Shown: positions 12,518-53,484 of the stretch, piece after piece | How positions within the stretch are numbered: the first letter of the stretch is position 1 | How the letters are laid out: the number at the start of each line of letters is the position of its first letter | IMG/VR virus record: IMGVR_UViG_3300042382_000102 | Coordinates: 16,336-80,335 of that record | Length of the DNA: 64,000 bases | Direction: 5' to 3' (one strand) | Source of the DNA: a virus | Made by a program: the position numbers and the translations under genes | Notes under the pieces: generated by a model | What the model saw: the letters and a program-made list of their open reading frames with translations, nothing else | What the model was told of the DNA's origin: nothing | Database searches by the model: none

Positions 12518-15500
12518 TTACGGTCCAATACCATACCAATCCATACCTTTAGGTATAGGAGCGAGTATCTCTTTTCTCGTAATCTTGTTTTTGGGATTTA
12601 GTAAGCCATCCTCAATAGCTTTTTGGCGAAGCTTATTGTAAGTCTCGTTAGACATACCTTCAGCTTTTAATGCCAGTAATGTTTTCTCTATTGTGTTACC
12701 TTCAAGAGCATCCGCATAGATTTCTCTAAGCGCATACTTGGACTTTGCTGCTTGTCCAATGTTGGTGAAGAAAGCATCATGAATCGTAGCGGTTTCAATA
12801 CCATTTTTACGACCCCATAAATGAAATCTTCTTACAATAGTAGCATCGTTCATGTGGTTACCATTAACCCCCATGCCAATACCTGCCCTCATCAGGCTTG
12901 ATTTTCCTAGAAGTGAAGCATCTTCTGCTCGATCTTCGTAAATGTTACGGACCATCCTATTAGCTTCTTTGTCATAGAACTCAATGCTAGTTTGGATTTT
13001 AGGTCTGTATCTCTGGTATAAAGTCTTACCATCAAATGTTACCCAAGGTACATCAACCTTCTGAGTTTCATCAACGTAAGCTTTAGCAGCTTCTTTCCAG
13101 AATTGTACGAACTTTTGAGTTACTGGTGCTCTCTCAGCTAGTCTTCGAGACATAATCTCAGAGACTGCTTTGAAGTCTTGAGGTCCAATTAGACCCCTAC
13201 GAGCATTCATTAACTTATCGACAAACGCTTCTACGTCTGGGTGAGAATCACGAGCATGTGCTAAAAGTTCTTGCCCCACAGGGGTTTCACCTTCAACAAC
13301 CTCATTCAACTCACGCTTTAATTGTTTCAAACCAAAGACAACATTTTCAGCACCTAGCTTATCTGCCTCTTTGATTTTTCCATCTATAATATTTGTTACA
13401 CCACGAAGTTCTTCACGAGTAACAACAGTATATCCTTTTAACTCTAATACTGAAGCAAATTTAGCCTCAATATTAGCCGCCTGTGTTGCTTTACCAGCAC
13501 CATAGAAAGAAACCATGTTCTGAGCTTTAGCAGCTTTCTGGAGATCAGTCCATTGAACATTAGCATCTCTTAACCCTTGTATCTTTTGAAACTCTGGATC
13601 AGACACTGTATCCATAGCAACTAAGTCATACAAACGATTCTTTTGGAGTGTAGGTAACACATTTGAGTTGATTGAAATGTCTCTATCGCCTGTACTCAAA
13701 CCGATAATCTGAGCACCAGAGGATGAGGCATCATTCTCAATCATTAATTTTGTTTTGTATTCTGCTAATTTATTTACATTAGTAAAATCACCATTTACAG
13801 CTTTATGCGCACGAGCGTATTCTATTGCTAATCGACTAATCTTTGGAACTTCCTCTGCTTCAGTAGCACGGATAATAGGATGCTCTAGGTATTCCCTAAT
13901 CCTTCTATCTCGTTGAGTAGTTTCCATCATTAACCTACCAAGGCTTAGAATTTCTTTTTCATTTCTTAAAAAGATTTCCATTCTACCAGATTGTGTTAAA
14001 GCTTCTGTAGCAGGTCCAAGCATAGACCCAGTTTGAATCATTAACTCTCGTAGAATCTCAGGAGTCATATCTTCAGGTTTTGCACTATTAAGAAATGGTC
14101 TAACCACTTCACCACCAGTTGGTGTTAGGAATCCTTGATAGTATACACGTCCACGACCATCAATATTAGCGACAACACTAAAAGGTTTACCAGTATCTCT
14201 GTGATACTTAACCGTCTGCATAAAACTGTAACCTTGATCTCCACGAGTCAAAATAAGTTTTCTAAAATCATTTAAGTCATCGTACTTCTTTACGTTCCCA
14301 CGGGGATCTCTAAAGCGAACTAAGTCTTCCATGAATCCAGCATACTCGTTATCAACCTCATATTGAACTGACATTGTATGATTAAGCATATCAGCAAAAT
14401 CATTGTCAATAAGAATTTTATCGTAATTAGCATTAGCCCTGCGAGTAATAATCGGAATACCTGTATTATTGCCTCTAGCATCAAAATAAGTCTTAGCTCC
14501 AGAACGAACATACAGCTTGTCTCTTGGAGAATTAATACCAATACGTTTTGCTAGCAATGCACTACGATTAGCTCTCTGTAAGTTTAACATATCTTTGTTT
14601 AAGATCTGTACTTCACGACTAACTGTATCTCTCCAAGGACCACTTGCACGACCTGTTTCTAGGTCAACAACTGATCTCCTAGTCTTACCTCTCATGACCA
14701 CACGAATGTAGCCTTTGTCTTTTAAGGCAGTAAGAATTTGGGAACCATCAGCATGATAGTCTTGTAATGTAGGTTTAAAGAACGGGAACTCTGGGACATT
14801 CCAAGATTCTCTCAATGTCTTTCCTACATTAATAGCTAATGAGTCATAGTCAGTAGACTTACCATCAGCAACTACAGTTAAAACTTTAGATAGGGCATCA
14901 ATAGCCTTCTTGTCGTTAAGACCACCCTCAACTAATTGATTTAAATAATTTTGTCTTTGTTTACCAAATAGAAACTCTAAGTCTACTATTCTTCGATAGT
15001 CTTCTCTTCTGTTTCTTAAAAATTCATCAACTAATCTTTCAGTAGGCGCTTTATCTTTAAAAAATAGTTTAGCACCAGGAATATTATCCTCTAAGTATTT
15101 AACTATTTTCTTTTTAAAAACATCAATACCAATTCTAGGAGTACCTTTAAACCATGTGTATAGTGGAGTTCTTCCAGTATAATACAAGCTTCTGGCTAGA
15201 GGTCTACCTTCAGTAGTAGCCCAATTACGAACATATCTTTGATCATCTATATTCTTTTGAATGATTTCATCAAAGGTATAATACTTACCAAATATTTGTA
15301 CTTTAGCAGGTTCTCCAGCAACTCCATATGAGTCAAATTGTGATGATCGTGCTCTTGATCTACGATCTAGAATACGACTAGTGTTAACTACAGAATACTG
15401 CATTTCACCACGGGCAACATTCATGAAGTTTACCCAAGGCTGTTTATCATTGTTATATCGTTCAAATACAACACGCAAATTTTCAGCAATAGCAGTCTGT

Positions 15501-16936
15501 TGGTTAACAGAAACAGAATCATCTAGGCTTTCAACGAATTGTTGAATCCAAACTTTTTGTTCTTGGTTTAGAGCCTTAGAGTTTTTAATAAAGTCTAATC
15601 GTTCCTGTAATACACCAAAGTCTGGGTCATACAAAAGAGTAGAACTCTGTTCACCTGTAAAGGGATCAAAGCTATTATTACGTTCATCAAACTCGTTATT
15701 AGCCCTAATCCTAACTGATCGTTTACCTTGTAATGAGGTACCACGATAGTCTACTAGAGATAGTGTTTGTGCAGTATTTTCAGTGTCCGCTATATACATT
15801 GCCTTTAATTGTTTATTGGCCTCTGTATTTTTAATAAGTTCATTAGGTCTAGCTACATTAACAGCAAATAAATTAGATTCAGCTTCTGCTACTGCGGCTT
15901 GCCTAGTTGGAAAGAATGTTGTTCTTGCATTATCAAGTTTTCTTAATGCTGCAATACTTAATTGTTGACCCTTAGCGGTAGTAAATGCTTTAACGTCAAG
16001 AACACCTTTTTGTAGTAATCCTGCACGTTCTTCACTACCTAAATGTTTAACTTGTACCATCATAGGCTGACGCTTAAGCCATGTACCATAAGTTTCTACT
16101 GGGGGTAAGCTACCATCTAAAATATTCTCAGATGTTTCCTTAAGTTTATTTACTTTAACTCTTGATTCAGCTTCCTCAGAAGCTTTTAATAGTTCTTCTT
16201 TGTTCTTTAAAACAGGAACCATAGAACTACGGCAATTCCAGTGTAAGGGAGGTCTAAAACGAAGATCATCAATCTTATATACTTGACCATCATGGTGAGC
16301 ACAGATCTTTGATGTTCTATTATCTAACACAGCAGTAAATCTATAACCTTTTAGTAATTCGTTATTACGATCCATTACTAGATTAATTGCTTTAGCTTGC
16401 GTATTCGTAATAGCAGTTCTAACTAATACCTTAGCTTGCACTTCAGTCATAGTTGTAGTCTTAATTACATCAGCAATAATTTCTTTAACAGGTTTATTGT
16501 CTGCTAATCCTGACTTAATTTTTCCATCAATCCTAGCTAACTCAGTTGTACCAATACTGTCAAAGTGATCTTTTAAACTCTTTGAGGCAGTAATATTAGG
16601 TCCAATCAGGAGAGGAATAGCATCACTACCTCTAGGTTTTTGTACCCTAAAGAAAGATCCAGCACTTCTCTCTAGATTATTAGCATGGAAGCTTACAGAG
16701 GCATCTGCATAATCACTAACTGAATTTTTAGTAATCATGTGTAACTCTTTAGTTGCTCGAGTTACTTCTGGTTTAACATCAGCCTTAATATTTTTAGATA
16801 ATAAAATCTTTAATCTTTTCTGATGCCTACGGATGCCTCTAGAAACATTGGTTGATGTCTCTGCTTCATATAGCCTAGTGTCAGCTAAGTGTTGTACAAT
16901 ACGATCATAAACTTCCGTATTAATTGGTGTTGGCAT
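12518..16936 (-). CDS. MuF (SPP1 gp7-like) minor head protein fused to a T7/SP6-type single-subunit RNA polymerase (candidate virion RNAP)
   Basis: N-terminal MuF motifs YRFTAVLDNRTSKICAHHDG and PPLHWNCRS; C-terminal RNAP motifs DGRGRVY, NDASSSGAQ (A), KAAKAQNMVSFYG (B), NGNHMND, IHDAFFT (C); one uninterrupted ORF between portal and scaffold. Confidence 0.9.
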   Translation of the reverse strand: MPTPINTEVYDRIVQHLADTRLYEAETSTNVSRGIRRHQKRLKILLSKNIKADVKPEVTRATKELHMITKNSVSDYADASVSFHANNLERSAGSFFRVQKPRGSDAIPLLIGPNITASKSLKDHFDSIGTTELARIDGKIKSGLADNKPVKEIIADVIKTTTMTEVQAKVLVRTAITNTQAKAINLVMDRNNELLKGYRFTAVLDNRTSKICAHHDGQVYKIDDLRFRPPLHWNCRSSMVPVLKNKEELLKASEEAESRVKVNKLKETSENILDGSLPPVETYGTWLKRQPMMVQVKHLGSEERAGLLQKGVLDVKAFTTAKGQQLSIAALRKLDNARTTFFPTRQAAVAEAESNLFAVNVARPNELIKNTEANKQLKAMYIADTENTAQTLSLVDYRGTSLQGKRSVRIRANNEFDERNNSFDPFTGEQSSTLLYDPDFGVLQERLDFIKNSKALNQEQKVWIQQFVESLDDSVSVNQQTAIAENLRVVFERYNNDKQPWVNFMNVARGEMQYSVVNTSRILDRRSRARSSQFDSYGVAGEPAKVQIFGKYYTFDEIIQKNIDDQRYVRNWATTEGRPLARSLYYTGRTPLYTWFKGTPRIGIDVFKKKIVKYLEDNIPGAKLFFKDKAPTERLVDEFLRNRREDYRRIVDLEFLFGKQRQNYLNQLVEGGLNDKKAIDALSKVLTVVADGKSTDYDSLAINVGKTLRESWNVPEFPFFKPTLQDYHADGSQILTALKDKGYIRVVMRGKTRRSVVDLETGRASGPWRDTVSREVQILNKDMLNLQRANRSALLAKRIGINSPRDKLYVRSGAKTYFDARGNNTGIPIITRRANANYDKILIDNDFADMLNHTMSVQYEVDNEYAGFMEDLVRFRDPRGNVKKYDDLNDFRKLILTRGDQGYSFMQTVKYHRDTGKPFSVVANIDGRGRVYYQGFLTPTGGEVVRPFLNSAKPEDMTPEILRELMIQTGSMLGPATEALTQSGRMEIFLRNEKEILSLGRLMMETTQRDRRIREYLEHPIIRATEAEEVPKISRLAIEYARAHKAVNGDFTNVNKLAEYKTKLMIENDASSSGAQIIGLSTGDRDISINSNVLPTLQKNRLYDLVAMDTVSDPEFQKIQGLRDANVQWTDLQKAAKAQNMVSFYGAGKATQAANIEAKFASVLELKGYTVVTREELRGVTNIIDGKIKEADKLGAENVVFGLKQLKRELNEVVEGETPVGQELLAHARDSHPDVEAFVDKLMNARRGLIGPQDFKAVSEIMSRRLAERAPVTQKFVQFWKEAAKAYVDETQKVDVPWVTFDGKTLYQRYRPKIQTSIEFYDKEANRMVRNIYEDRAEDASLLGKSSLMRAGIGMGVNGNHMNDATIVRRFHLWGRKNGIETATIHDAFFTNIGQAAKSKYALREIYADALEGNTIEKTLLALKAEGMSNETYNKLRQKAIEDGLLNPKNKITRKEILAPIPKGMDWYGIGP

Positions 16937-16990
16937 TTAAACTCCTTGATGCTAGTTAACAACTGCATCTTGGATGCCCTCGTTAATAGC

Positions 16991-17227: not shown

Positions 17228-17228
17228 A

Positions 17229-18842
17229 TTAAGCTCCTGAATTATTATCTGTACGATTGTTGTCATTCATATCAGATACATTTGAGTCAATTCTAGTTGC
17301 CATAGTATCTACAAGAGGATCACTCTGAATCTCAGCTATACCTTCTTCATCGTTATACTCAGCAGGGAGTACATCGTTAAACTTAGCAATAGAGATAAAT
17401 GTAGAACGTGGAATAATACCTTGCTGGTACCATTCTGTAACTAGTCTCATCCAGTCAGCACCTACAGGTGTAGGATTAAAGTCAGCACTTAATGTAAACT
17501 TAATGTCTGTTGGAAGAACATCAACATTATATTTCCACTTAAGCATAACTGTAATAATCTGTCTCATTGTCTCTGAGATACGAGTATTAAGCATGCCTAA
17601 TTGAGCAGTCTGAGCAGCATTACGGATTTCTAAGCTTACGCCTGACTCACCTGAAGAACCTTCTGGCGATAACATGCGGATTCCCATACGAGCCATCTCT
17701 TCGATAGTAGCAGCAATACTTGCCTCCATATCTTTTAGAGCACCTGTAGGTGTATCTAGTGCTTTGATATCATCTCCTGCACGAAGTTTAATCCATGAGC
17801 CTAAACCAGCAGCTACAATATCCTCAAACTCTTCATCAGTCATATCTGACATGACTACTGGAGTGTATGTTGCAGCGCCATAGAGTAAATGATTACGTCT
17901 ACTAATCTTGTTGTATAGTGCAATCTCACGATCAATTAATGATTGTAGAATTGGTTCAACAGGATCAATTTGACCATTTAATGGGTAGGCAGGAATGAAA
18001 TTCATTCTCTCACCATTCATTAATGGTATTTCTGTGCGTGTTTTAGTCCATGCTGCATTAGCGTTATCTGTCTGATACTTAGAAGTAACATTACCATTAA
18101 TAACGTTAACAGACTCATTAGTGTCTCGTGTGTAAGTATCCACAACAAGTAAGCCTGCATCATCTAGGTAGTAGTGAGTAACTGTGTCTACATAGTCTGG
18201 ATGGAATTGATTTTTAGTATAGTCTTCCATATAATAACGGAAGAGTAAACTTGTTAATACTTGTTTGTTAGTATTACGGTCTTGACCTCTACGCCAGTTA
18301 ATAATATTCTCTGCTTGAATGAGCATAACATATGGTGATAGAGCCTTAGCTTCTTCTACTGTTAATGCGTCTGGGTTAGCAACTGTAGGATAGTCTACTA
18401 AGCACCAAGCTCTGGATGACTGTAATTCTTCCCAAATAGCAGCATCTAAAAATCCATGTAGTGAGGTACCATCAGAGCCAAAAGAAGTACGAATCCAATC
18501 TTCAGTTCCTTCTGGGAACATATTATCAGGTAATTCAATAGCCGCTTGTTTACGTAGTAGTCCACCCACTAAAACTTTAGCATATTGTGCTGTTAGACCT
18601 GGAAGTTCACCTTCAGCACGATAAAAATTGTACTGTTGAGAACTCATTGTAGGAGAAAATGGTAACAATAGGTTACTAAAATTTACTGGATCAATTGTAT
18701 CATCATATGCTCGTGCATGTGTCTGTCCATTTAGAACAGCTCTGGATCGTTCCCAGAGTGGCCGCATAGATTCGTATGCAGCATTAGGATCCCCAAGGCT
18801 TTTTGTCTTAGCCTTTGATGGGGTCGTTGTTAGGTTTGCCAT
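17229..18842 (-). CDS. Portal protein (DUF4055-like)
   Basis: 537 aa; IQAENIINWR and ESGVSLEIR motifs; upstream of MuF, scaffold and MCP. Confidence 0.85.
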   Translation of the reverse strand: MANLTTTPSKAKTKSLGDPNAAYESMRPLWERSRAVLNGQTHARAYDDTIDPVNFSNLLLPFSPTMSSQQYNFYRAEGELPGLTAQYAKVLVGGLLRKQAAIELPDNMFPEGTEDWIRTSFGSDGTSLHGFLDAAIWEELQSSRAWCLVDYPTVANPDALTVEEAKALSPYVMLIQAENIINWRRGQDRNTNKQVLTSLLFRYYMEDYTKNQFHPDYVDTVTHYYLDDAGLLVVDTYTRDTNESVNVINGNVTSKYQTDNANAAWTKTRTEIPLMNGERMNFIPAYPLNGQIDPVEPILQSLIDREIALYNKISRRNHLLYGAATYTPVVMSDMTDEEFEDIVAAGLGSWIKLRAGDDIKALDTPTGALKDMEASIAATIEEMARMGIRMLSPEGSSGESGVSLEIRNAAQTAQLGMLNTRISETMRQIITVMLKWKYNVDVLPTDIKFTLSADFNPTPVGADWMRLVTEWYQQGIIPRSTFISIAKFNDVLPAEYNDEEGIAEIQSDPLVDTMATRIDSNVSDMNDNNRTDNNSGA

Positions 18843-19568: not shown

Positions 19569-19581
19569 ATATAATTAGTCC

Positions 19582-19695: not shown

Positions 19696-19704
19696 AATAT
19701 CCCC

Positions 19705-19890: not shown

Positions 19891-19899
19891 TTGTATCCT

Positions 19900-20367: not shown

Positions 20368-20376
20368 AAGAAATCC

Positions 20377-22992: not shown

Positions 22993-23010
22993 TTAAATCC
23001 TTTAAAAGAA

Positions 23011-23083
23011 GAGTGATAGTGGGAGTCGAACTCACATTCCGAAGCAATTAAATCCTCGATTCTACCGATTGAATTATACCACT
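23011..23083 (-). tRNA. Degenerate tRNA-like gene (nominal anticodon TAA; probably pseudo or undetermined)
   Basis: AGTGGTA/TATCACT acceptor, ATTC/GAAT D stem, GTTCGACTC T loop; mismatches in anticodon and T stems, U at 37, no CCA. Confidence 0.6.
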
Positions 23084-23086
23084 CTA

Positions 23087-25494: not shown

Positions 25495-25497
25495 AGT

Positions 25498-26033: not shown

Positions 26034-26056
26034 TCTCTCTTTAGCGTCACCTGGTC
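26034..26056 (-). promoter_or_regulatory. Phage RNAP promoter (SP6-like), copy 2, heading the late operon
   Basis: GACCAGGTGACGCTAAAGAGAGA. Confidence 0.8.
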
Positions 26057-26065: not shown

Positions 26066-26142
26066 AAAAAAAAAAAGAATTACCCCTCCAGAGTACCCTC
26101 TAACCACCCCCGAAGGAGCAGCTAAAGAGTACCCTGGAGGGG
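26066..26142 (-). terminator. 28-bp RNA hairpin with C(UUCG)G loop followed by T11
   Basis: CCCCTCCAGGGTACTCTTTAGCTGCTCC-TTCG-GGGGTGGTTAGAGGGTACTCTGGAGGGG; all non-Watson-Crick pairs are G-U. Confidence 0.8.
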
Positions 26143-26640: not shown

Positions 26641-26663
26641 TTTCTCTTTAGCGTCCCCTGGTA
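26641..26663 (-). promoter_or_regulatory. Phage RNAP promoter (SP6-like), copy 3
   Basis: TACCAGGGGACGCTAAAGAGAAA directly upstream of the SleB-like gene. Confidence 0.8.
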
Positions 26664-35537: not shown

Positions 35538-36263
35538 TTATGGATTCTTAATCACTTCATCTACAATACCATGTATAACTGCTTCATCTGGAGAGAAGAA
35601 ACAATCTGATTGTTGTAGTAAGTGTTTACGAATATATGCTACAGATTTACCTGTACATTTACGATAATGGGTTAGCATTCTTGCTGAATCTAATTGGAAA
35701 TCTTTTGAGGCAGCAGCTATTTCATGTTCTTTACCAACTACTCCACGAGAGAATTGATGAGACATTACAGAACAATTTTCAGTAATAAACCGATTGCCTT
35801 TAGCTCCAGCCATTAATAACATTACCCCAGCAGATGCAATTTCACCTGTACCAATAGTAGCTATTGGAATAGTAGACTGTTTAATAGTGTCAATTAAATG
35901 ATATGCTGATGAAACAAAACCACCTGGACTGTTAATAAATAGTACTAATTTAGTTGGTTGATCTTCTTTAGCCATAAGATTATATTCCATAATAGCCATA
36001 ATAATAGGCTGTACAGAATCGTCTTCTACTTCACCCATAAGATACATAATGCCATTACGCATAATGTTCTTTCCAAACCAATAGTAATTACCTTCATTAT
36101 CTTCAGGAATTACAGGTTGAGGTGGATTTGGGGACTCTGGCTCTTGAGGTGCTTTAGGTCTAGCCTTCGCATTAAATACACTTGAGTAGCTTTTGAACTG
36201 GCAACCGAATAGTTTGCTCATCTGATAATTCCTTAGTTGAAATAAATAGCTCTGCTGGTTCAA
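35538..36263 (-). CDS. clpP: ClpP-like serine protease
   Basis: INSPGG, GEIASAG (catalytic Ser), MSHQ (His), DCFFSPDEA...GIVD. Confidence 0.88.
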   Translation of the reverse strand: MNQQSYLFQLRNYQMSKLFGCQFKSYSSVFNAKARPKAPQEPESPNPPQPVIPEDNEGNYYWFGKNIMRNGIMYLMGEVEDDSVQPIIMAIMEYNLMAKEDQPTKLVLFINSPGGFVSSAYHLIDTIKQSTIPIATIGTGEIASAGVMLLMAGAKGNRFITENCSVMSHQFSRGVVGKEHEIAAASKDFQLDSARMLTHYRKCTGKSVAYIRKHLLQQSDCFFSPDEAVIHGIVDEVIKNP

Positions 36264-43006: not shown

Positions 43007-43191
43007 ACTGGGTAGGTTACTTTCTCAAAGCCATATCTCTTAACTCGAGCTAATAGTTTCTTGCCAACTTTATTACGAACTTTATACTTAATAATTGTAG
43101 GACGATCTACAAAGCTAAGATATAAATACTTATCGCCACGAGGATAAGTATATGTTGCCGATGGAACTCTGTATACTAATGATTTTTTCAT
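43003..43191 (-). CDS. Small basic hypothetical protein
   Basis: ATGA-coupled on both sides. Confidence 0.5.
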   Translation of the reverse strand: MKKSLVYRVPSATYTYPRGDKYLYLSFVDRPTIIKYKVRNKVGKKLLARVKRYGFEKVTYPV

Positions 43192-43601
43192 TTTTGTTGT
43201 ACTCTTATATTACTGTGAATTAATGTTAAAATACCTGAATCAGTTTTATATCTGTCTGAAAATATTACTCTTTCAACGCCAGATTGGATTAGTAGCAGTG
43301 AACAATTGTCACAAGGAGCAGTTGTCACATATACTGTTGATCCTTTTAAACTCAAACCTTCTGCAGCAGCCTTAGAGACTAAATTTGCTTCAGCATGAAT
43401 TACATAGGATAATGTTTTATTATAATCATCTTCACATTTATTAGGAAAACCTGTGGGAGTTCCATTAAATCCGAAGCTGAGAATATTATTATTTTTTACT
43501 GCTATAGCACCAACCTTACGCTTTTCAGCATGAGACATTAGTGCTATTCTTTTAGCAAGATCTAAATACAGGGAATCGTAGCGATCTTCTTTTGTAACCA
43601 T
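43188..43601 (-). CDS. dCMP deaminase
   Basis: KVGA, GFNGTP, HAEAN, PCDNC. Confidence 0.9.
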   Translation of the reverse strand: MVTKEDRYDSLYLDLAKRIALMSHAEKRKVGAIAVKNNNILSFGFNGTPTGFPNKCEDDYNKTLSYVIHAEANLVSKAAAEGLSLKGSTVYVTTAPCDNCSLLLIQSGVERVIFSDRYKTDSGILTLIHSNIRVQQK

Positions 43602-44053
43602 GAAGGTGCATCTCTATTTGTATATCGCATTAAATTTATTTTTTCAGTTAAATAATAATTTCGATATGATTCAACTGTATCATTTAACTTACAATGATCT
43701 GGCATGGCTAAGGGAGGGTCTTGCCAATCTTCTGCTTTAATGTCCCTTGGAAAACTAGAAAGTGTACCTGAATGATCTAAAATAGTTTTATGTACTTTTC
43801 CAAATCGGTGAGTATACTCTTTACCAAGTTCTTCCATAAGAATATAAAGCCACATATAATGCTTAATACTACTACGAACCCAAACAGCAGAAGGATGATT
43901 GTCATGTGTCTTTTTGTAAGGCCCACCATCACCAACTAGATGATGGGCGGTAGATAATAACTGTGCTGACTCAAGAATCATCTTTACTACATGAGAATCA
44001 TAGTGAGCCTTAGCACATTCTGTTTGGTTTTTGTCTAAATAAAAAATGTTCAT
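43562..44053 (-). CDS. Pyrimidine dimer DNA glycosylase-like protein
   Basis: MNIFYLD...HVVKMILESAQLL...HDNHPSAVW...EYTHRFGKVH...YRNYY. Confidence 0.75.
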   Translation of the reverse strand: MNIFYLDKNQTECAKAHYDSHVVKMILESAQLLSTAHHLVGDGGPYKKTHDNHPSAVWVRSSIKHYMWLYILMEELGKEYTHRFGKVHKTILDHSGTLSSFPRDIKAEDWQDPPLAMPDHCKLNDTVESYRNYYLTEKINLMRYTNRDAPSWLQKKIATIPCI

Positions 44054-44688
44054 GATTCGTGTATGTGTGTAAATTCAGGGTATTTAGCTTTAATTTTAGC
44101 TATATACTTTGGATCATCATTCTTTCTAATTAAATGAACTTTGAATTCTTTACTAATGTCAAACTCTACACTAGTGTCTAATTCATAATCTTCCGAATTA
44201 GTTAAATAATCCCAATAATAACCACGAGTATAAGAAGCTTTAGACAAACTTCCATGAAATGTGTTTAACATCTCAATTGGTTGTCTATCACATAATACAA
44301 TTTGAATTGGCATAAAACAATTTTTTACGTTTAATACACCAACAACTCCATTATCTAAACTATGTGTATAATAAGAATTATTTGTTACATCTTCTAATTC
44401 ATCAGCTTGAAGCTGTAATGCTTGTGATATTCTGTCTTTGATACTATTTCTAGACTCATTAGGATACCCATGAATATAGATATCTAAATCCTTTGCAGGG
44501 TTACCTAATGCCCAGTCTCGTGGTGCTCCACCTAGAATACAAGAATAAGGGTCCACAATATGTAACATGTTTAATGCTGCATGAGCACAGTTTTTCTGTG
44601 ATTCAATAGTTTTACTTTTCATTTCAGTTTTTAAAGAAAGAGATTCTAAAAGTGCTTTTTTAATTCTATCATTTATATCGTTATACAT
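44050..44688 (-). CDS. Nucleotidyltransferase (CCA-adding/poly(A) polymerase head-like)
   Basis: LGGAPRDW...KDLDIY motif. Confidence 0.7.
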   Translation of the reverse strand: MYNDINDRIKKALLESLSLKTEMKSKTIESQKNCAHAALNMLHIVDPYSCILGGAPRDWALGNPAKDLDIYIHGYPNESRNSIKDRISQALQLQADELEDVTNNSYYTHSLDNGVVGVLNVKNCFMPIQIVLCDRQPIEMLNTFHGSLSKASYTRGYYWDYLTNSEDYELDTSVEFDISKEFKVHLIRKNDDPKYIAKIKAKYPEFTHIHES

Positions 44689-46577: not shown

Positions 46578-47196
46578 TTAATAATTTTTCTATATCTTTA
46601 ATTTTAATTGGTTGGTTATTGTTTTTAGTGTAAGCAAGTAGGAACTTTAAATACCATAATGCTTTACCTAATTCTTGTTCTTCAGCATCTTTACCGCCAA
46701 GGCGATCTAGATACTTTCGTACTTGTAGTTCAACTGCTGCCTTGAAGCAATCAGGATTTCTAAAGCTCGGTAGATATTGCATAGCCTCTAGCCATTGTAA
46801 ATCCATTATATAACTCTGATAGTGACTAGGATTAATAGCACTCTGGTAGTTAGGAGTAAGAATAGTGCTCTTTAATGTTGTTGGATTTTCTTTTAAGTAT
46901 TTCATAAGCTGATCTACTTCCCACTCATCATCACCATCTTCAATAGCCCACGTATTTAATAAGTTACGATAGTCATTTACAGCACCAATTGTATTTAACT
47001 CCTTAGATCTGTTTTTTACAGATGTAGGCCAAATACATTTGATAGTAAAGAAATTCATATTGTCTTTCCATGCAGTTACAGCATTTTCAAAGTCATTATA
47101 TGTTCCTACTACCCCACGCTTATCATCATACGAATACACTTCATATACTGGTACGTACATCTTGATCCTCTGGTTTATATAGTTTGCCCTCATCAA
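46558..47196 (-). CDS. DUF3310 (SaV / T7 gp1.7-like) domain protein
   Basis: C-terminal AINPSHYQ...KYLDRLGGK...ELGKALWYL. Confidence 0.65.
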   Translation of the reverse strand: MMRANYINQRIKMYVPVYEVYSYDDKRGVVGTYNDFENAVTAWKDNMNFFTIKCIWPTSVKNRSKELNTIGAVNDYRNLLNTWAIEDGDDEWEVDQLMKYLKENPTTLKSTILTPNYQSAINPSHYQSYIMDLQWLEAMQYLPSFRNPDCFKAAVELQVRKYLDRLGGKDAEEQELGKALWYLKFLLAYTKNNNQPIKIKDIEKLLNEQSSI

Positions 47197-47323
47197 TAGC
47201 TTGTTTTAGCATATGTATAAAAGCATAATTCATAAGGTATTCTCTTGCTTCGTTATCTAAGTCTAGTATAACATTAGCACTACCATCTTCATTTTCATTA
47301 ATCTTAGATATTGTAAACTTCAT
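47141..47323 (-). CDS. Hypothetical protein
   Basis: ENEDGSA motif. Confidence 0.55.
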   Translation of the reverse strand: MKFTISKINENEDGSANVILDLDNEAREYLMNYAFIHMLKQAIDEGKLYKPEDQDVRTSI

Positions 47324-47586
47324 TAGTATACATCTCCATTTTCTTGAATCTTTTTATCTTCATAAGGTGCAGCTATTCTACGATAAAACTCAATCTTAGC
47401 ACCTTCTAGAGCACCTACAATGTCGTTAATTGCTTGGTAGTTACCTTTATCTGTACGATTAAAATAATCTCGTACAATAGAAGTAATAACAAAGTTTAAC
47501 TCACCAGGGGTAGTGCATAAATCACCAACCTCAGCTACACTCTTTGTATGTAAGAACTGTTTAAAGTCTTGTCGAATATAAGGCAT
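47323..47586 (-). CDS. Conserved phage hypothetical protein
   Basis: MPYI...GELNF...EFYRRIAAPYEDKKIQENGDVY. Confidence 0.7.
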   Translation of the reverse strand: MPYIRQDFKQFLHTKSVAEVGDLCTTPGELNFVITSIVRDYFNRTDKGNYQAINDIVGALEGAKIEFYRRIAAPYEDKKIQENGDVY

Positions 47587-47999
47587 TAATCTAAATACTC
47601 CGTAATAATAGTGTCACAAGCTTTGTCTACTGTAGATCTCCACTCTGTAACTAGAGACTCAAAGAAAGGGTGGATAGTAGAAGCATTAGCTTTAAATGCA
47701 ACTACTGGTTTTCGTAATACATAAGAAGCATAAAAAACTTCCATTGCAGTACCGTGTTTAGCAATTGTAGGATTATCTAAATTAACAAGGATTAAATCTG
47801 ATTCTTGAATATCACGAAGATCTAACTCAAATATACGTTTCATATATTTAGGTTGAAATTCATGAACTCTACGAGTGGGATCTAATACTTTCTGATCTGC
47901 TTGTAATAGTAAATCAGTAGCAATTGTTCTCCATCCTTTTGCATCTTCAATAGAAACATGTTCCATTGGACCTGCTAAATATACTGTTCTTTGTTTCAT
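47586..47999 (-). CDS. Nucleoside 2-deoxyribosyltransferase-like protein
   Basis: VYLAGPM, DLRDIQESD, GTAMEVFYA. Confidence 0.8.
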   Translation of the reverse strand: MKQRTVYLAGPMEHVSIEDAKGWRTIATDLLLQADQKVLDPTRRVHEFQPKYMKRIFELDLRDIQESDLILVNLDNPTIAKHGTAMEVFYASYVLRKPVVAFKANASTIHPFFESLVTEWRSTVDKACDTIITEYLD

Positions 48000-48298
48000 A
48001 AAAGTTCTTCTAAAATACGCATGTAGTTAGCGGTATACCATAAACCGCCTTGATTATATGGTCTTTGATGTCTATTGTAGTCTTGAATTTCTACTTTACA
48101 CCACACTCGATCTTTGTAACTCAAGTGAGGCGCATTAGGAGTAGAACAGCAATGCCACCCAGGGCGATAAGCGTAGCCAACAGTAGGATGCGATTCTGCT
48201 CCATATAGAACACCTTTTTGTATTTTCTGTTTACGATTAATAAATAATGGACCATAAGTTCCATCTTTACGTTTCTTAAATAGTTTGTATGCAATCAT
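47996..48298 (-). CDS. Hypothetical protein
   Basis: YKLF...RPGWHCC...QGGLWY motif. Confidence 0.65.
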   Translation of the reverse strand: MIAYKLFKKRKDGTYGPLFINRKQKIQKGVLYGAESHPTVGYAYRPGWHCCSTPNAPHLSYKDRVWCKVEIQDYNRHQRPYNQGGLWYTANYMRILEELL

Positions 48299-48564
48299 TA
48301 TGACTTAAAATTTAACCAATCTGGTTCCATAGTTACAAGGTGCTGAATTAACCCGATGTTCTCTACATCAACTAAATCTGCAATCTCTCTAATAAATTCT
48401 CGTTCTCCCATTAATGATTCAATTGTGCAAACAGTATAATCTTCATTATATGAAAAATCATCTCCAAGTTTACACAATAATAACATTTCAAATTCACTAA
48501 TAGAATCAGTGAATGTTATAGTATATTCAGAAGTAACCAAGAACTGCTCCAATGAAGGGTACAA
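48298..48564 (-). CDS. Hypothetical acidic protein
   Basis: TTG start with GGAG RBS. Confidence 0.5.
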   Translation of the reverse strand: MYPSLEQFLVTSEYTITFTDSISEFEMLLLCKLGDDFSYNEDYTVCTIESLMGEREFIREIADLVDVENIGLIQHLVTMEPDWLNFKS

Positions 48565-48699
48565 AGACTCCGATTATACGACCGATAATCCAACCAAGTG
48601 GGGTATCAGCATTCATGAATAAAATAGCTACAAAGTTTGCTATCCAACCATAAATAGATGCTATTACAATACCTAATCCTACTAAACCTGCAAATATAT

Positions 48700-48837
48700 T
48701 CATTTACCTTGTCCTCGATAGCGTTTAAATGATCGACGTTGTGTCTTGGTCATTGTTGATGTTTTAGGTCGTGAACCACCTTGTGAAGTTCGTTTAACAA
48801 TGCCCTTAACTGTTTCTTTTCCAATTTTCTTTGCCAT
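48700..48837 (-). CDS. Small basic protein ending KRYRGQGK
   Basis: 45 aa with AAGGA RBS; not in ORF track. Confidence 0.6.
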   Translation of the reverse strand: MAKKIGKETVKGIVKRTSQGGSRPKTSTMTKTQRRSFKRYRGQGK

Positions 48838-48850
48838 ATATTCCTTTAAT

Positions 48851-48925
48851 TGGTCCCTCTTGTAGGAATCGAACCTACATTAATAACTTAGAAGGTTACT
48901 GTTCTATCCATTGAACTAAAGAGAG
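48851..48925 (-). tRNA. tRNA-Arg(TCT)
   Basis: Complete cloverleaf: CTCTCTT/AAGAGGG acceptor, anticodon loop CTTCTAA, GTTCGATTC, encoded CCA. Confidence 0.93.
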
Positions 48926-48927
48926 TG

Positions 48928-49002
48928 TGGTGGGACAAGTAGGAATTGAACCTACACTCAATCGATTATGAGTCGACTGCTTTACCATTAAGCTATTATC
49001 CC
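48928..49002 (-). tRNA. tRNA with CAT anticodon, probably tRNA-Ile2 (alternatively Met)
   Basis: Complete cloverleaf with CCA; anticodon arm GTCGA-CTCATAA-TCGAT and TTCAA T loop resemble bacterial Ile2. Confidence 0.85.
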
Positions 49003-49006
49003 TGAT

Positions 49007-49030
49007 AAAATAGGAGACCTAAGTCCCCTA
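49007..49030 (-). terminator. Terminator or processing hairpin after SSB gene
   Basis: TAGGGGAC-TTAG-GTCTCCTA-TTTT. Confidence 0.55.
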
Positions 49031-49038
49031 ATTGCTAA

Positions 49039-49539
49039 TTAATAAGGACTATCTTCAAAGTCATCACTACCATTTGCATCTGCTACTCTTACAATCTCTG
49101 TTTCAGTAAGTTCAAAGTCATCACCAGAAGATCTAGGGATATATTCTTTCAACTTAGTAATCTGCACAGCCATTAGCATAGATGCAATCTTATTCTCTGG
49201 TGGATACTCATACTGGAAAATCTTTACATTAGCAATAGAACCATTACCAATACTAGCAGGATCAATTGCAGTTAAAGAACCATCAACTACAGTTACTGGT
49301 TGATTGTCAGCACCATCTTTCTTTTTAGACTTTTTACGAAGAGTTACAGAATAAAATACTCCATCATCATCTTCTACTGTTTTAGGCTTTAAGTTAAGTG
49401 CTACCCATTCTGCTTTAACTTTCTTGTCTCGAGTGCGAATCTGAACATCCCATGTAGGTTGTTCTTTGTTAAATTTAGAATTAGGTCTCTTGGGGTCTAA
49501 TTGTGCCCAGAATAACTCAACATTTTTTAAAATAGCCAT
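49039..49539 (-). CDS. Single-stranded DNA-binding protein (T7 gp2.5-like)
   Basis: IGNGSIANV, AVQITKLKEY, acidic tail ending in an aromatic residue. Confidence 0.75.
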   Translation of the reverse strand: MAILKNVELFWAQLDPKRPNSKFNKEQPTWDVQIRTRDKKVKAEWVALNLKPKTVEDDDGVFYSVTLRKKSKKKDGADNQPVTVVDGSLTAIDPASIGNGSIANVKIFQYEYPPENKIASMLMAVQITKLKEYIPRSSGDDFELTETEIVRVADANGSDDFEDSPY

Positions 49540-49606
49540 AGGTTTTAGTTTCCTTAATTATAATTTCATTTTTAATATTTAGTATACAATTGAATTTGCA
49601 TACGTT

Positions 49607-49630
49607 AGTGCTTTAGCGTACCCTGGTAAA
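49607..49630 (-). promoter_or_regulatory. Phage RNAP promoter (SP6-like), copy 4, heading the replication genes
   Basis: TTTACCAGGGTACGCTAAAGCACT immediately after the RNAP stop codon. Confidence 0.75.
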
Positions 49631-49632
49631 AC

Positions 49633-51801
49633 TTAACAAAAAGCATAATCAGAATACACAATCTGACCGACATCTAGATTACCCCTTTCAGGAATAAGGT
49701 CTTTACAGTCGAGTTCAGCAAGCAATTTTTCAAGAGGTTTACTTTTGTAAAACTCAACAAACTGTTCTCTTACTCTATAAAACAAATCATCCATTCGTCC
49801 TGGTAAAGTACCAAAAGAATCATGAACAACAGTCATTTCATAAGGAGCAGATACAACAGTCATTGTTAGGTGAGCAGCATCAAAGCTATGAACAATGTTT
49901 GGTGCAGCACCTGTTCTTTGGGAATCTTTATTAATAGTTGTTTCTTCCCAAGTTTGAAGTTGAATCTTTAATTCTTCTTCTCCGTACTTCAACTTAGTAC
50001 GTACAATAGATGGCTTACGATATGCCTGTACAACTGGGAAGTTAGTTACAGGTGTAGTCCATTTTAGAAACACTTCTTTTTCATTAGATCTTTGTGCAAG
50101 ATCCTGAAACATACGCAACATAGTGGCTGGTCCTTTGAGTTTCTCATAACAAGTCTCAAATACCAGATCACCTAATAGCGCACCCCAGAGGTGTTCCTTG
50201 TCACGAAGATACTCAGACATATCACGAGTGTCATCAATAATTTGTTGACCCATGCCGTATGCAGTACCACCGTAACCGAGTGTCATTACATTTCTCTTTA
50301 CTACTTTCCGTTGATCTTTAGGGTTATCGATTTTAAGCCAGTAAACAGGAAATAATTTTTCTCGTATTGCTCTATTTTGATTACGCCATTCTTGGGCAGC
50401 AGCATAGGCTAATGCTTTTTGCTCTGTCTTTTCAGGTGCATCAAAATAAGCTTTTTGTAGTTCTTTAGCTTTACCATAAACAGAGTCAAACTGACCTCTT
50501 TCTTCAGGTGTTAGCTTGTCTGCCATCTCTTGTAAATGTTCCCATACATATTTTGCAATATACATGTAGACATCACCAGGAAGCTCTTGTGGAACTAAAT
50601 TTACTAATGGAGCAATATCTTCATCCTGAGACATAGCTACTAGATGTTGAACTCCGTTATTAGAACCATCAATGTAAACAGGAAGTGAACATTCATATTC
50701 TTCTAACTTATTTCCTTCCATTAGCCACTCCTTAATCTTCTTTAACTCATAACAAGCAGCTAAGAAAGAAAATGGGGCATCAGTATCAATCCAACCTTGG
50801 TTAATAGTTGGCTTCTCTGCATAAGATAAAAATAAATTAATATTCTCATCTACAAACTCTGCTCTTTGTTTTAGTGTAACTTTGTCATTACCGAAAGAGT
50901 TAGAGGTATGTACTTTTAACCAGAATAAACCATTTTCTCCAAGTGGTGCTGGTTGATCTAATAAGAGTAAACCTTTAGCATTATCACTAGATTGCTCATG
51001 CAAGAATGCTGTATTCACATATACACGACCACGAAAATCGAAGTTATACATATGATAAAAGGTATTATCTAAATGGTTTGAAGCTAGTTGTTCAATAGCC
51101 TCAGCTTCAATCAGCAGAGATTTCTTTTTCTCTTCATCAATTTCAGAATGTAATTTAAATGGACTAACTGAATTTTCCTTATGAAGAAAATGTTGATAAA
51201 CTTTAAATACATCTTTGTTAATGCGCCATCCTGTAGCTTGTAATTTATTTAGAACATTGTAAAGTATTTCTTTATCATTATTCTTAAATTGTGCTAATGC
51301 TGTAGAGTGACCTTTCTTAATAATAGGAACACCTAAATTATTATGAGCAGAATCCCATGGGCATGGGGCTTCTCTCATGGGAAAGATATCAACTTTAGTT
51401 TGATCAATTAGACTCCATAAGTCTTTAATTGATTTCCAATCTTTAACTTGAAAGAAATAAGCTTGGTACTTACTCTTCTTGCCATTCTTGTATGTATACT
51501 TTAATTTAAAAGATAAAACATTACATTCAATATAAGCAATACACACAAACCAGCCGACTTGTGCATCAAAGATTGTGTCATTAGGTAATTCAAGAGTTTG
51601 TCGAATTCTCCTGCCAATAGTAGCAATAATGTCTACTAAAGTACCTTGTCTCTCAAGTCCACGTAATACATGAGGATATGAGATGTCTATTAGTGTCTTT
51701 GGATCTACATCTTTCAAGTAGTGAGTATAGATATTTCTATCTGAACGCAACGTAGCTTGACGTAGCTTAATATCATTAACTAATTTATCTAGAACGGTCA
51801 T
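49633..51801 (-). CDS. T7/SP6-type single-subunit DNA-directed RNA polymerase
   Basis: DFRGRVY, DGSNNGVQH, RKVVKRNVMTLGYG, APNIVHSFD, VHDSFGT. Confidence 0.96.
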   Translation of the reverse strand: MTVLDKLVNDIKLRQATLRSDRNIYTHYLKDVDPKTLIDISYPHVLRGLERQGTLVDIIATIGRRIRQTLELPNDTIFDAQVGWFVCIAYIECNVLSFKLKYTYKNGKKSKYQAYFFQVKDWKSIKDLWSLIDQTKVDIFPMREAPCPWDSAHNNLGVPIIKKGHSTALAQFKNNDKEILYNVLNKLQATGWRINKDVFKVYQHFLHKENSVSPFKLHSEIDEEKKKSLLIEAEAIEQLASNHLDNTFYHMYNFDFRGRVYVNTAFLHEQSSDNAKGLLLLDQPAPLGENGLFWLKVHTSNSFGNDKVTLKQRAEFVDENINLFLSYAEKPTINQGWIDTDAPFSFLAACYELKKIKEWLMEGNKLEEYECSLPVYIDGSNNGVQHLVAMSQDEDIAPLVNLVPQELPGDVYMYIAKYVWEHLQEMADKLTPEERGQFDSVYGKAKELQKAYFDAPEKTEQKALAYAAAQEWRNQNRAIREKLFPVYWLKIDNPKDQRKVVKRNVMTLGYGGTAYGMGQQIIDDTRDMSEYLRDKEHLWGALLGDLVFETCYEKLKGPATMLRMFQDLAQRSNEKEVFLKWTTPVTNFPVVQAYRKPSIVRTKLKYGEEELKIQLQTWEETTINKDSQRTGAAPNIVHSFDAAHLTMTVVSAPYEMTVVHDSFGTLPGRMDDLFYRVREQFVEFYKSKPLEKLLAELDCKDLIPERGNLDVGQIVYSDYAFC

Positions 51802-52002
51802 TTAGGCAAATTCGAAAGCTGTTTGATGATTTGATTGTGTTGTTTCCTTGTTGTTTAACTTTTTATAGAGCCAGATAATAAAGGTCTCTAGTAAAAGAAC
51901 TAAAACTTCAAATAGGATTGCTTTTGTCATTATTATTATTATATCCTGTTTTTGATTAAAAAATTCAGAAGAACCCCAAGGCATCTAGCCTCGGGGATCT
52001 TT

Positions 52003-52212
52003 TTAGGAAGCTAATTTAGCGTCCATTGGTAGTTCAGTAGCCTCTACTTCAACTATACCATTTTTTCTATCTTGATACCATGTAACTACTTTATTAGCCA
52101 CATAGAAAGATAAACCGATAACTAAAACTTCCTTAGCAAAATTCAAGGTAAGAAGTGCAGCTAAGAAGCCAAGCAACCAACCAAGAAAGTAACCAACTGT
52201 TGTTAAAGCCAT
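52003..52212 (-). CDS. Early membrane protein
   Basis: Hydrophobic 69 aa; GGAG RBS. Confidence 0.55.
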   Translation of the reverse strand: MALTTVGYFLGWLLGFLAALLTLNFAKEVLVIGLSFYVANKVVTWYQDRKNGIVEVEATELPMDAKLAS

Positions 52213-52358
52213 TTTAATACTCCATTAAATAAAAGGTTTTGGAAAGGGACCACTGAATAAAATTAAAAAGATATAAGCAATTAGTACTATAAAAAATAAT
52301 GGTCTAGCCACTACAAATAGTACAAACATAATAAGCAAAAATATTACAAAGAGGCTCA

Positions 52359-52604
52359 TTACTTCCTCATTGTATTAACATGGCCTACTAGCTTAAATCT
52401 TTGGTTTATGTGAGCTAACGGATTAACTTTCCATAAATCTAGTTCTTGACCAACTTTATCAAAGAAGTCTAAACTATGTGGTTCATAACGAACTTTGATG
52501 TAATTAACGATCTCTTTGCTGACTTGGTAGACATAACCTTCCTCATCAGCAATTCGAACACTAGAATACACAGGTGGACATTTAGTACACATTTTAAACT
52601 CCAA
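52359..52604 (-). CDS. Early hypothetical protein
   Basis: ORF track; probable start MCTKC. Confidence 0.5.
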   Translation of the reverse strand: MEFKMCTKCPPVYSSVRIADEEGYVYQVSKEIVNYIKVRYEPHSLDFFDKVGQELDLWKVNPLAHINQRFKLVGHVNTMRK

Positions 52605-52848
52605 GTTTTTTATCTACAAAAACTAAATCTTCAATTGCTTTAAAGAGCCTACTAAAGTCTTCAGCAGATTCTGTAATAACCGAAGCTACAGTTTCTCCAA
52701 CCATATATGCTGATTTAACATCATACAATGAAGGAGAAACAACTTTCTGTAAGAAGTCATCATAGACAGTTACTTGAACTGAATCAAATAAATTCTCTTG
52801 AATAGCTTCAATAGTATAGTCACCTGATTTTAGAGTCAATCTTGGCAT
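52594..52848 (-). CDS. Early hypothetical protein
   Basis: ORF track; GAGG RBS. Confidence 0.55.
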   Translation of the reverse strand: MPRLTLKSGDYTIEAIQENLFDSVQVTVYDDFLQKVVSPSLYDVKSAYMVGETVASVITESAEDFSRLFKAIEDLVFVDKKLGV

Positions 52849-52850
52849 TT

Positions 52851-53144
52851 TTAATCCTCAATTTTCTGATCATATATAGAAGTGAATTCAATAATAGAAC
52901 CATCGAGTTCAACTTCAGTACACATTCTTTCAATTAAAAACTTAGAGTTACTTGTTGCATAGATTGCAGGTATACCTTTAGTATCATTTGAGAATATATA
53001 AGTTAATCCAAACTCTTCTAACGATTCAATTACCTCTTGTGCAGTAACTCCAAAGTTATCCCCATAAAGTGGATTCAACAATAAGTACTTAGGCATAGAT
53101 TTTTCCTTATCAAGCTCTTTAATTCGATTTGAATTGCTACTCAT
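52851..53144 (-). CDS. Early hypothetical protein
   Basis: ORF track. Confidence 0.55.
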   Translation of the reverse strand: MSSNSNRIKELDKEKSMPKYLLLNPLYGDNFGVTAQEVIESLEEFGLTYIFSNDTKGIPAIYATSNSKFLIERMCTEVELDGSIIEFTSIYDQKIED

Positions 53145-53484
53145 TTACAATTACCTTTATTAATAAACTAGCGCATCAAGACCATGTAATACCAAAGCAC
53201 ATAGGCCTAAGCCAATAGCAATAGCAGTAACAACATCCATAAATGTTTCAGATTCAAAAAACTTTTTCATTTTAAACTTTCTTAGAGTGAACAATTATAT
53301 TTCAATATCCAACTGTTTTGCAGATGGTATAGAAATCAAACAACCGCATGATCAAAAGACCAACAGCCAAACCAGCAAAAAATGTCAATACAATCATATA
53401 ACCTTTCAAGTTAATAGAGATTAGAGTCCTATCTTTTAAGATATTCTTCTATTATAGATACATCATTTTTCTCACTTTTTTTGA

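Follow-up and report, generated by a model that had tools for sequence, protein, structure and literature searches.

How does a phage that carries two distantly related T7-like RNA polymerases (RNAPs), one free-standing and one fused to a head protein, divide its gene programme between them, and does it need the RNAP of its host at all? The question is raised by IMG/VR record IMGVR_UViG_3300042382_000102 (80,335 bp), of which we analyzed bases 16336-80335, a stretch of 64 kb hereafter called the window. This long-tailed, marine-type phage encodes a 722-amino acid (aa) RNAP at the end of a block of putative early genes and, among its late genes, a 1472-aa protein that joins a MuF head module to a second RNAP. 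Its nearest isolates are the roseophages DSS3_VP1 and DSS3_PM1 (VP1 and PM1 below), siphoviruses of the Naomviridae, and both of its RNAPs are 49-50% identical to theirs. As computed directly, both polymerase genes are intact and encode the catalytic motifs, the fused module has a T7 fold, two promoter classes are in place and the arrangement is conserved in the family. The phage probably runs its whole gene programme without the host polymerase. The explanation that we favor, with moderate confidence, is a two-step relay of the phage's own single-subunit RNAPs in which the host enzyme is needed at no stage.

In this relay, the 1472-aa fusion would be made from the head operon late in infection, and its MuF module would carry it into the procapsid at the portal, so that it would be ejected with the DNA at the next infection. 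The ejected fusion would then start at an early promoter-like element, which we call class E (53444-53477), and transcribe eight early genes together with the gene of the 722-aa RNAP. The 722-aa enzyme would in turn read a set of SP6/T7-like promoters, which we call class M/L. Judging from promoter type and position, the first of these would drive the tRNA, nucleotide-metabolism and replication genes, and the remaining ones the genes for lysis, for packaging and head (including the fusion gene itself) and for the tail.

The gene of the free-standing enzyme (49633-51801, minus strand) is the last of the early block. Its product matches PF00940 with 271.9 bits (E 1.3e-80; gathering cut-off, 22 bits), and phmmer aligns it to T7 RNAP (E 8.7e-63) over T7 residues 391-883, with weak alignment from T7 residue 296. 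The catalytic motifs all align: DGSNNG, RKVVKRNVMTLGYG and HDSFG correspond to DGSCSG, RSVTKRSVMTLAYG and HDSFG of T7 RNAP, and the same is true of FDFRGRVY, KRNVMTLGYG and the C-terminal YAF foot. Identity to the T7/SP6/Xp10 group is 26-28%. The enzyme is approximately 160 aa shorter than T7 RNAP (883 aa), the whole deficit being N-terminal, and the regions of the AT-rich recognition loop and the intercalating hairpin align poorly to T7. Its catalytic sequence identifies the 722-aa protein as a genuine T7-like RNAP.

The second RNAP is the C-terminal part of the fusion gene (12518-16936, minus strand), which we consider a candidate virion RNAP. This gene occupies the slot between the portal gene (17229-18842) and the genes of the scaffold (11756-12451) and the major head protein (10641-11735), and its product matches both head-morphogenesis and RNAP families of PHROG. 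It is composed of a MuF/SPP1 gp7-like head module (approximately aa 50-350; 15887-16789, minus strand), some 200 aa of unknown function and a 913-aa polymerase module (aa 560-1472; 12521-15259, minus strand). The head module is recognized by phrog_241 (aa 52-349, E 3e-53) and by PF04233 (aa 141-239, 42.9 bits; cut-off, 29.6 bits), and the polymerase module by a weak match to PF00940 (aa 1053-1436, 29.4 bits). The RNAP motifs of the fusion read DGRGRVY, NDASSSG, KAAKAQNMVSFYG, NGNHMND and IHDAFF. We modeled aa 560-1472 with AlphaFold2 (predicted local distance difference test, 82.9; predicted template modeling score, 0.76) and compared the model to known structures with VIA-align. It superimposes on T7 RNAP over 518 residues spanning T7 45-882 (Z 31.5, root mean square deviation 3.6), while the Z scores are about 28 for mitochondrial RNAPs, 17.9 for the N4 mini-virion RNAP and 15.4 for N4 RNAPII. 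As modeled, the fused module has the full T7 fold. Since the fold comparison spans T7 45-882, the fused enzyme would be a complete T7-type polymerase, N-terminal domain included, and the free enzyme the truncated one.

The weak Pfam match, together with the lack of the C-terminal FAFA foot of T7 RNAP, could mean that the polymerase module is a catalytically dead structural or ejection protein. We find this barely credible, because the catalytic motifs are invariant in 23-26 fusion homologues (48-83% identity), and across the aligned homologues this holds for the motif A and C aspartates, the motif B lysine and tyrosine and the equivalent of His784; mobile insertions, moreover, have entered motif B of the fusion gene in several lineages. 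Motifs T/DxxGR, A, B and C are present in each of the two polymerases, and from their sequences both look active.

The insertions deserve mention in their own right. In several relatives, among them the fusion open reading frame (ORF) of genome G003, the fused-RNAP gene is interrupted exactly within motif B, between KAAKAQN and MVSFYG. An HNH endonuclease gene is part of the insertion in EBPR siphovirus 1 (L041, 25771-31144). Of the representative clusters, about eight comprise an N-terminal half that ends at motif B and about five a C-terminal half that starts there. Motif B of the fused RNAP looks like a homing intron or intein hotspot.

Are the two polymerases products of a recent duplication? 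They share 21% identity over 631 aa. We built a maximum-likelihood tree of 17 catalytic regions, in which one clade on a long branch (support 100/99) comprises the fused enzymes of the window phage, of three metagenomic relatives, of VP1 and of EBPR siphovirus 1, and a second one the free enzymes together with that of Pelagibacter phage Kolga (support 95/98). T7, SP6 and Xp10 lie outside both clades and the N4 virion RNAP stands alone on a very long branch; BLASTP between the fused RNAP and the N4 mini-virion RNAP gave no match. Because the two groups form separate, supported clades, the RNAPs did not arise by recent duplication, nor is the fused enzyme a relative of N4 gp50; by their sequences, the free and fused RNAPs are ancient paralogues. 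A first-pass annotation made from the letters of the window alone had placed a 722-aa RNAP at 49633-51801 and a MuF-fused one among the late genes, which Pfam and motif alignments confirm. It had also put the shortfall of about 160 aa relative to T7 RNAP at the N-terminus, as the alignment to T7 bears out, and had argued against a recent duplication, in agreement with the low identity and the well-supported separate clades. In the phylogeny with the T7, SP6, N4 and Xp10 enzymes, neither clade is sister to the N4 virion RNAP.

The fusion itself is strictly conserved. A word-indexed search found more than 431 fusion clusters at 90% identity, nearly all of 1450-1600 aa and with both Pfam domains; the named entries are mostly called SPP1 gp7 or minor head/capsid protein. 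Using phmmer over 1.84 billion representatives, we obtained at least 130 clusters at 50% identity, 59 at E <=1e-30. In the full-length matches (approximately 1400-2070 aa) the polymerase part begins at about residue 555-670, always behind an N-terminal part of approximately 560 aa, and the shorter matches are apparently fragments, or halves cut at motif B. All five related genomes that we tested, three of them rated 100% complete, hold a free RNAP and an RNAP-bearing ORF of 1476-2108 aa, even though the polymerases of one are only 31-35% identical to those of the window phage. VP1 and PM1 likewise carry both a free and a fused RNAP.

What is a polymerase doing behind a head protein? The homology of the head module is to SPP1 gp7, a portal-bound minor head protein (PMC5512222). 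From this homology, the gene slot and the strict conservation of the fusion, we infer that the protein is packaged and ejected. It could instead act in the cell that produces it, late or in connection with replication, or lose its RNAP part by cleavage before packaging, as some head-targeted proteins, such as those of the P1 DarB type, are indeed processed (PMC5512222). We regard this as quite unlikely. That the polymerase stays strictly fused to a portal-associated head protein throughout the clusters counted above would otherwise be hard to explain, so that co-packaging is likely the point. Moreover, since the fusion gene is itself under a class M/L promoter, the fusion could not start class M/L.

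We then asked which promoters are available to the two enzymes. The motif TACCAGGGGACGCTAAAG occurs in four copies in the window, all on the minus strand (49611-49628, 26646-26663, 26039-26056 and 8768-8785), with 0 expected (100 shuffles), and a fifth copy lies outside the window. These class M/L promoters consist of the 23-mer TACCAGGGGACGCTAAA|GAGAGA and of close variants, with an AT-rich stretch from -4 to -1. All copies are co-oriented with the genes and non-coding, the one at 26034-26056 overlapping only a 51-aa ORF call that we judged spurious. The first copy, TACCAGGGTACGCTAAA followed by GCACTA (49606-49628), lies 5 nucleotides (nt) past the RNAP stop codon, and behind it come a 166-aa gene, tRNA-Met and tRNA-Arg. 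The other copies detected in the motif scan precede a 157-aa cell-wall hydrolase gene (26641-26663) and head the packaging/head operon with the fusion gene (26034-26056) and the tail operon (8763-8785). Compared to the textbook consensus sequences, class M/L agrees at 9 of 17 positions with T7 and at 10 of 17 with SP6 between -17 and -1, with a G at +1 in both. There is no class M/L promoter upstream of the 722-aa gene, either in the window or in 34 related loci, and the earlier observation that the four SP6-like promoters all lie downstream of this gene is therefore confirmed.

The position of the first copy after the RNAP gene is kept in relatives down to approximately 60% RNAP identity, and it is the same arrangement as that of T7 phi1.1A, which sits 26 nt after gene 1. 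The equivalents are several AATAGGGTGCGTTAAAGAGGGG-type sites in VP1, found only downstream of its own RNAP gene, and AAATACTTGACCCTTATG in the clade of 48% identity. The specificity-loop region of the 722-aa enzyme varies between the same clades as the class M/L sequence, in the way that T7-type enzymes and their promoters usually co-evolve.

Between the promoters at about 26.0 and 26.6 kb lies a terminator with a long hairpin and a T-run (26066-26142, minus strand), which sets the 157-aa cell-wall hydrolase gene apart as a single-gene unit. The hairpin has a CUUCGG loop, and one of its arms contains CCAGGGTAC and TCTTTAGC, two promoter-like halves in rearranged order. Another terminator-like hairpin (49011-49030, minus strand) follows the 166-aa gene.

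With no class M/L promoter ahead of it, how is the early block transcribed? At its head lies the class E promoter-like element, AAGTGAGAAAAATGATGTATCTATAAT(A)GAAGAA (53444-53477, minus strand), which is unique in the window with 0 copies expected by chance. Transcription is predicted to start within 53449-53452, the exact base being left open by a subclade insertion (TATAAT-A-GAAGAA). An intrinsic terminator with an 8-bp stem, a GAAA loop and a T-run (53492-53511, minus strand) closes the preceding tail-fibre/hemO/bilin-reductase operon, and the same hairpin and T-run precedes class E in relatives and in VP1. The first-pass annotation had flagged the region 53400-53570 without naming an element there. 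It proves to hold a strong terminator and a conserved second promoter-like element, as a second polymerase specificity predicts.

At the sensitivity of whole-genome blastn against distant relatives we detected only coding conservation, and it was shared 12-mers that revealed class E. Among the 12-mers common to the window genome, its 63-66% relative G004 and VP1, class E is the only intergenic run. In blastn of the intergenic region, an identity of 94-97% persists over class E but over little else, the flanks having diverged. Loci with an RNAP of only 63-64% identity still match the element with 0-1 mismatch, and it is kept down to approximately 50% protein identity. A degenerate class E pattern (approximately 43 bits) matches 53 IMG/VR contigs, VP1 among them, and a homologue of the free RNAP lies downstream on the same strand, at a distance of 1-6.6 kb, in 24 out of 24 informative loci; the same holds in the eight out of eight class E loci that have more than 7 kb of downstream sequence. 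Several relatives bear two tandem copies 200-300 nt apart. The two VP1 copies (35793 and 36240) directly follow the terminator of the tape-measure gene, and the RNAP gene comes 6.6 kb downstream of them. The 3' half, TCTATAATGAAGAA(A), does not vary, the 5' AAGTG(A/G)G(A/G)AAA hardly varies, and about nine nt between them differ from clade to clade. G005, the most distant relative, has the variant core GTATCTTATATGAGAAG twice upstream of its RNAP gene. Class E is absent from Pelagibacter phage Kolga, which has a single RNAP and an unfused 633-aa MuF protein. This pattern of conservation points to class E, found new here, as a functional, family-wide signal.

Some variants and look-alikes of the element were also seen. 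A match to TATAATGAAGA at about 48450 lies inside a gene and comes without the rest of the element, and we judged it to be due to chance. The class E variants of the window clade fold at 0 kcal/mol; given the lack of a stable fold, we make no claim of an N4-like promoter hairpin. Only the GGGG...CCCC subclass can form a stem, of 3-6 bp. In full, this subclass reads GTGGGG...CCC(C)TCTATAAT (loci L051, L053, L059, L061, L063, L064, L067, L069, L076, L092 and L095), and its possible hairpin would stand just upstream of the invariant core; the GAGA subclass, to which the window belongs, cannot form it, and locus L046 mixes the two types. VP1 (L004) has a third, partial early-type core, TCTATAATGAACCA, at position 67796, after a terminator and ahead of gp032, without the upstream AAGTGAGAAAA.

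Downstream of class E are eight small orphan ORFs of 31-97 aa (51802-53397, minus strand), several of them hydrophobic; a PHROG search of the eight returned no family for any. A hairpin of 9 pairs, 7 of them G-C (51974-51996, minus strand), lies within this block, ahead of the last small ORF and of the RNAP gene, and may be an attenuator or a processing site.

Because its gene lies behind class E and has no class M/L promoter upstream, the 722-aa enzyme cannot be the one that starts class E. Besides the packaged enzyme, the only other candidate is the sigma-70 enzyme of the host. The host RNAP could transcribe the early block from class E as it does in T7, and the MuF-RNAP, whether packaged or not, would then have another job, for example in drawing in the DNA, in priming replication or in enhancing late transcription. 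Class E does contain a perfect TATAAT, and among phages with one T7-like RNAP the two studied best, T7 and Xp10, have their early genes transcribed by the host RNAP. We consider this explanation unlikely. Class E has neither a -35-like hexamer 16-18 bp upstream nor a TGn extension, and a consensus scan lists no promoter there; over 47000-56000, the sigma-70 scan gave only 9/12 matches, fewer than in shuffles, and none at the head of the early block. Conservation extends over approximately 33 contiguous bases, including the spacer, the upstream 11-mer AAGTGAGAAAA and 6-7 bases past the hexamer, which far exceeds what sigma-70 needs, and it spans the phage of a roseobacter with 64% guanine plus cytosine (GC) and this 35%-GC phage. 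In G005 the variant core reads ATCTTATATG rather than TATAAT. Finally, early transcription by the host would leave a conserved, catalytically intact packaged polymerase without a promoter.

Returning to the relay, the presence of two polymerases and two promoter classes suggests one class per enzyme. As in T7-group promoters, the two classes share the ending C-T-A-(T/A)-A, after which a purine-rich start comes within 1-3 nt. The specificity-loop region of the fused enzyme (...PWVTFDGK..QRYRP.IQ..I.F.D....R...NIY) differs far less between clades than its counterpart in the free enzyme. This parallels the near-invariance of class E and is suggestive, if weakened by shared ancestry. The specificities might also be swapped, with the MuF-RNAP reading the SP6-like promoters and the 722-aa enzyme reading class E, given that only the fused enzyme has a full-length T7-like N-terminal domain. 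The 722-aa enzyme, with its gene behind class E, would then have to make itself, and an injected enzyme that reads SP6-like promoters would turn on the late genes first. Moreover, it is the 722-aa enzyme that is much nearer to T7/SP6 (E 8.7e-63, compared to 4e-5 for the fused one) and whose specificity loop changes along with the class M/L sequence from clade to clade. A swap thus appears very unlikely.

Several points weigh against the relay of two phage enzymes. Promoters are assigned to enzymes by logic and by differences in conservation, which shared phylogeny confounds, and literature searches returned no virion proteomics, transcript mapping or rifampicin test for any member of the family. 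With its perfect TATAAT, class E could be used by the host sigma-70 enzyme. To our knowledge, there is also no documented precedent for the passage of a 165-kDa fusion through a long siphovirus tail.

CheckV rates the record as 100% complete, and the contig ends overlap by 230 bp with 1 mismatch (genome 1-230 and 80105-80335; window 63771-64000), within a repeat-rich, Ala/Ser-rich tail-fibre gene that spans the junction. Because the overlap falls inside this gene, the map is circular and the contig ends are arbitrary; we rejected a physical terminal repeat and read the 230 bp as the assembly overlap of a circular map. The 'linear' label that the record bears is an artefact of assembly. Every substantial ORF lies on the minus strand. 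Read in transcriptional order, a tail-fibre block is followed by heme oxygenase and bilin reductase, the terminator, the eight tiny ORFs and the 722-aa RNAP. Next come the tRNAs and the nucleotide-metabolism and replication genes (DNA polymerase, primase-helicase, NrdAB and a dCMP-deaminase-family protein), then the cell-wall hydrolase, TerL, PhoH, the portal and the MuF-RNAP fusion, and finally the scaffold, the major head protein, the tape-measure protein and very large tail proteins.

VP1 matches 29 out of 111 ORFs at 25-61% identity in the same circular order. VP1 and PM1 thus share with the window phage both RNAP genes, the head-module slot and these 29 genes, whereas VP1 differs in its GC content (47% compared to 35%) and lacks a match for about three quarters of the ORFs of the window phage.

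Further genes and features were noted along the map. Overlapping genes for a heme oxygenase (PF01126) and a ferredoxin-dependent bilin reductase (PF05996) lie at the end of the tail-fibre operon (53604-54807, minus strand); bracketed by terminators, the pair forms an auxiliary cassette for pigment synthesis in a phage without photosynthesis genes. The genes for tRNA-Met(cat) and tRNA-Arg(tct) (48851-49002, minus strand) follow the 166-aa gene, approximately 600 nt behind the first class M/L promoter, and that for tRNA-Leu(taa) (23010-23084, minus strand) adjoins TerL within a 279-nt gap. The middle genes include, all on the minus strand, those for a ClpP-family protease (35538-36263), an M28-peptidase-like protein (31761-32906) and a nucleotidyltransferase with a poly(A)-polymerase head domain (44050-44688). 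G005 (loci L098 and L102) has 69-bp tandem repeats at its contig ends (1, 70, 139 and 208; 81396 and 81465). It also has a long structured non-coding stretch directly after its 531-aa RNAP frame, for which a second analysis gave a frame of 926 aa in the same gene; the stretch may be an intron.

How does this arrangement compare to known systems? The closest in logic is N4 (Schitoviridae), in which the virion RNAP gp50 is followed by RNAPII (gp15/gp16) and then by the host RNAP. In both phages a packaged RNAP of the T7 superfamily starts, or would start, transcription and an early-encoded second enzyme takes over, and in both the two RNAPs are very divergent paralogues. The first-pass annotation had described the design as N4-like logic with different parts, and this still fits: it is a variant of the relay of N4 and the jumbo phages rather than a wholly new logic. 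The parts do differ. N4 gp50 has approximately 3500 aa, no MuF and a zincin peptidase region needed for encapsidation (PMC5512222), compared to 1472 aa in the fusion, in which Pfam detects only MuF and RNA_pol and which is thus no giant polyprotein of the gp50 type with a zincin-peptidase-bearing C-terminal region. N4 uses hairpin promoters and a heterodimeric RNAPII, and its late genes need the host RNAP. The window phage is long-tailed, its second enzyme is a single chain of 722 aa, and its T7/SP6-type duplex promoters stand before middle and late genes; its fused enzyme is also nearer to T7 than to N4 in fold (Z 31.5 and 17.9, respectively).

In its architecture, the fusion resembles MuF polymorphic toxins and SPP1 gp7, which likewise have an N-terminal MuF with a C-terminal cargo and are presumed to be delivered with the DNA (PMC5576092, PMC5512222), except that here the cargo is a 913-aa RNA polymerase. 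No polymerase is among the MuF cargoes described by Iyer et al. 2017 (PMC5512222), who report N4-like virion RNAP modules only in N4-like phages, or among those of Jamet et al. 2017 (PMC5576092). The paper that founded the Naomviridae never mentions RNA polymerase, contains no virion proteomics and annotates the fusion only as a head protein, and in the open-access literature we found no description of a MuF-RNAP fusion or of a two-RNAP relay.

With T7 and SP6 (Autographiviridae) and the siphophage Xp10, the window phage shares a homologue of the 722-aa enzyme, 23-bp T7-group promoters and a first promoter right after the RNAP gene. Those phages, however, package no RNAP and use that of the host for early genes, and the 722-aa enzyme lacks about 160 N-terminal residues. 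The jumbo phages AR9/PBS1 and phiKZ likewise rely on a virion RNAP early and on a second phage RNAP late, independently of the host RNAP (PMC5312081, PMC9209446, PMC7598289), but their enzymes are multisubunit RNAPs related to the cellular one and their genomes exceed 200 kb.

If it is true, the relay would be the first of a virion and a non-virion enzyme to consist of single-subunit RNAPs only and also to cover late genes, and the first in a long-tailed phage. The MuF fusion would be a second, independent packaging route for a T7-type RNAP, unrelated to N4 gp50. Hundreds of database entries called only 'head morphogenesis protein' contain a polymerase. The cultured relatives VP1 and PM1 grow on Ruegeria pomeroyi, and exact candidate promoter sequences are now given for both enzymes. 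A compact 722-aa RNAP and a very divergent 913-aa one, each with a candidate promoter, could also serve as mutually orthogonal expression systems.

Why would such a phage dispense with the polymerase of its host? In the virion DNA of VP1 and PM1, deoxyuridine (dU) replaces thymidine (PMC8323127). The window phage encodes a dCMP/dCTP-deaminase-family protein (43188-43601, minus strand) that is 37% identical to the dCTP deaminase of VP1, an enzyme characterized in PMC12697855. Homologue searches of its genome returned no ThyA, no ThyX and no HD-type dTMP phosphatase. A nucleoside 2-deoxyribosyltransferase-like protein (47586-47999, minus strand) might fill the role of the latter. As far as sequence can tell, this gene set is compatible with a dU-substituted genome. 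PBS1/AR9, the other dU-DNA phages whose transcription is known, combine dU-DNA with a virion RNAP followed by a non-virion RNAP, the latter of which recognizes uracil in its promoter (PMC5312081, PMC9209446).

It is conceivable, although we put it forward only tentatively, that a global long-tailed family comprising the Naomviridae and their relatives became fully independent of host RNAP through two single-subunit RNAPs as an adaptation to dU-DNA, with a MuF-delivered RNAP that reads a near-invariant early promoter of approximately 33 nt and a minimal 722-aa RNAP that reads clade-specific T7-type promoters. After PBS1/AR9 and PhiR1-37, dU-DNA would then have been combined with a relay of a virion and a non-virion RNAP independently for the third time. 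The relay may explain how dU genomes, which the host RNAP may read badly, are expressed. A self-contained polymerase relay could even be a general answer to a uracil genome, if the host enzyme reads dU-DNA poorly, an idea that we hold to be possible but doubtful.

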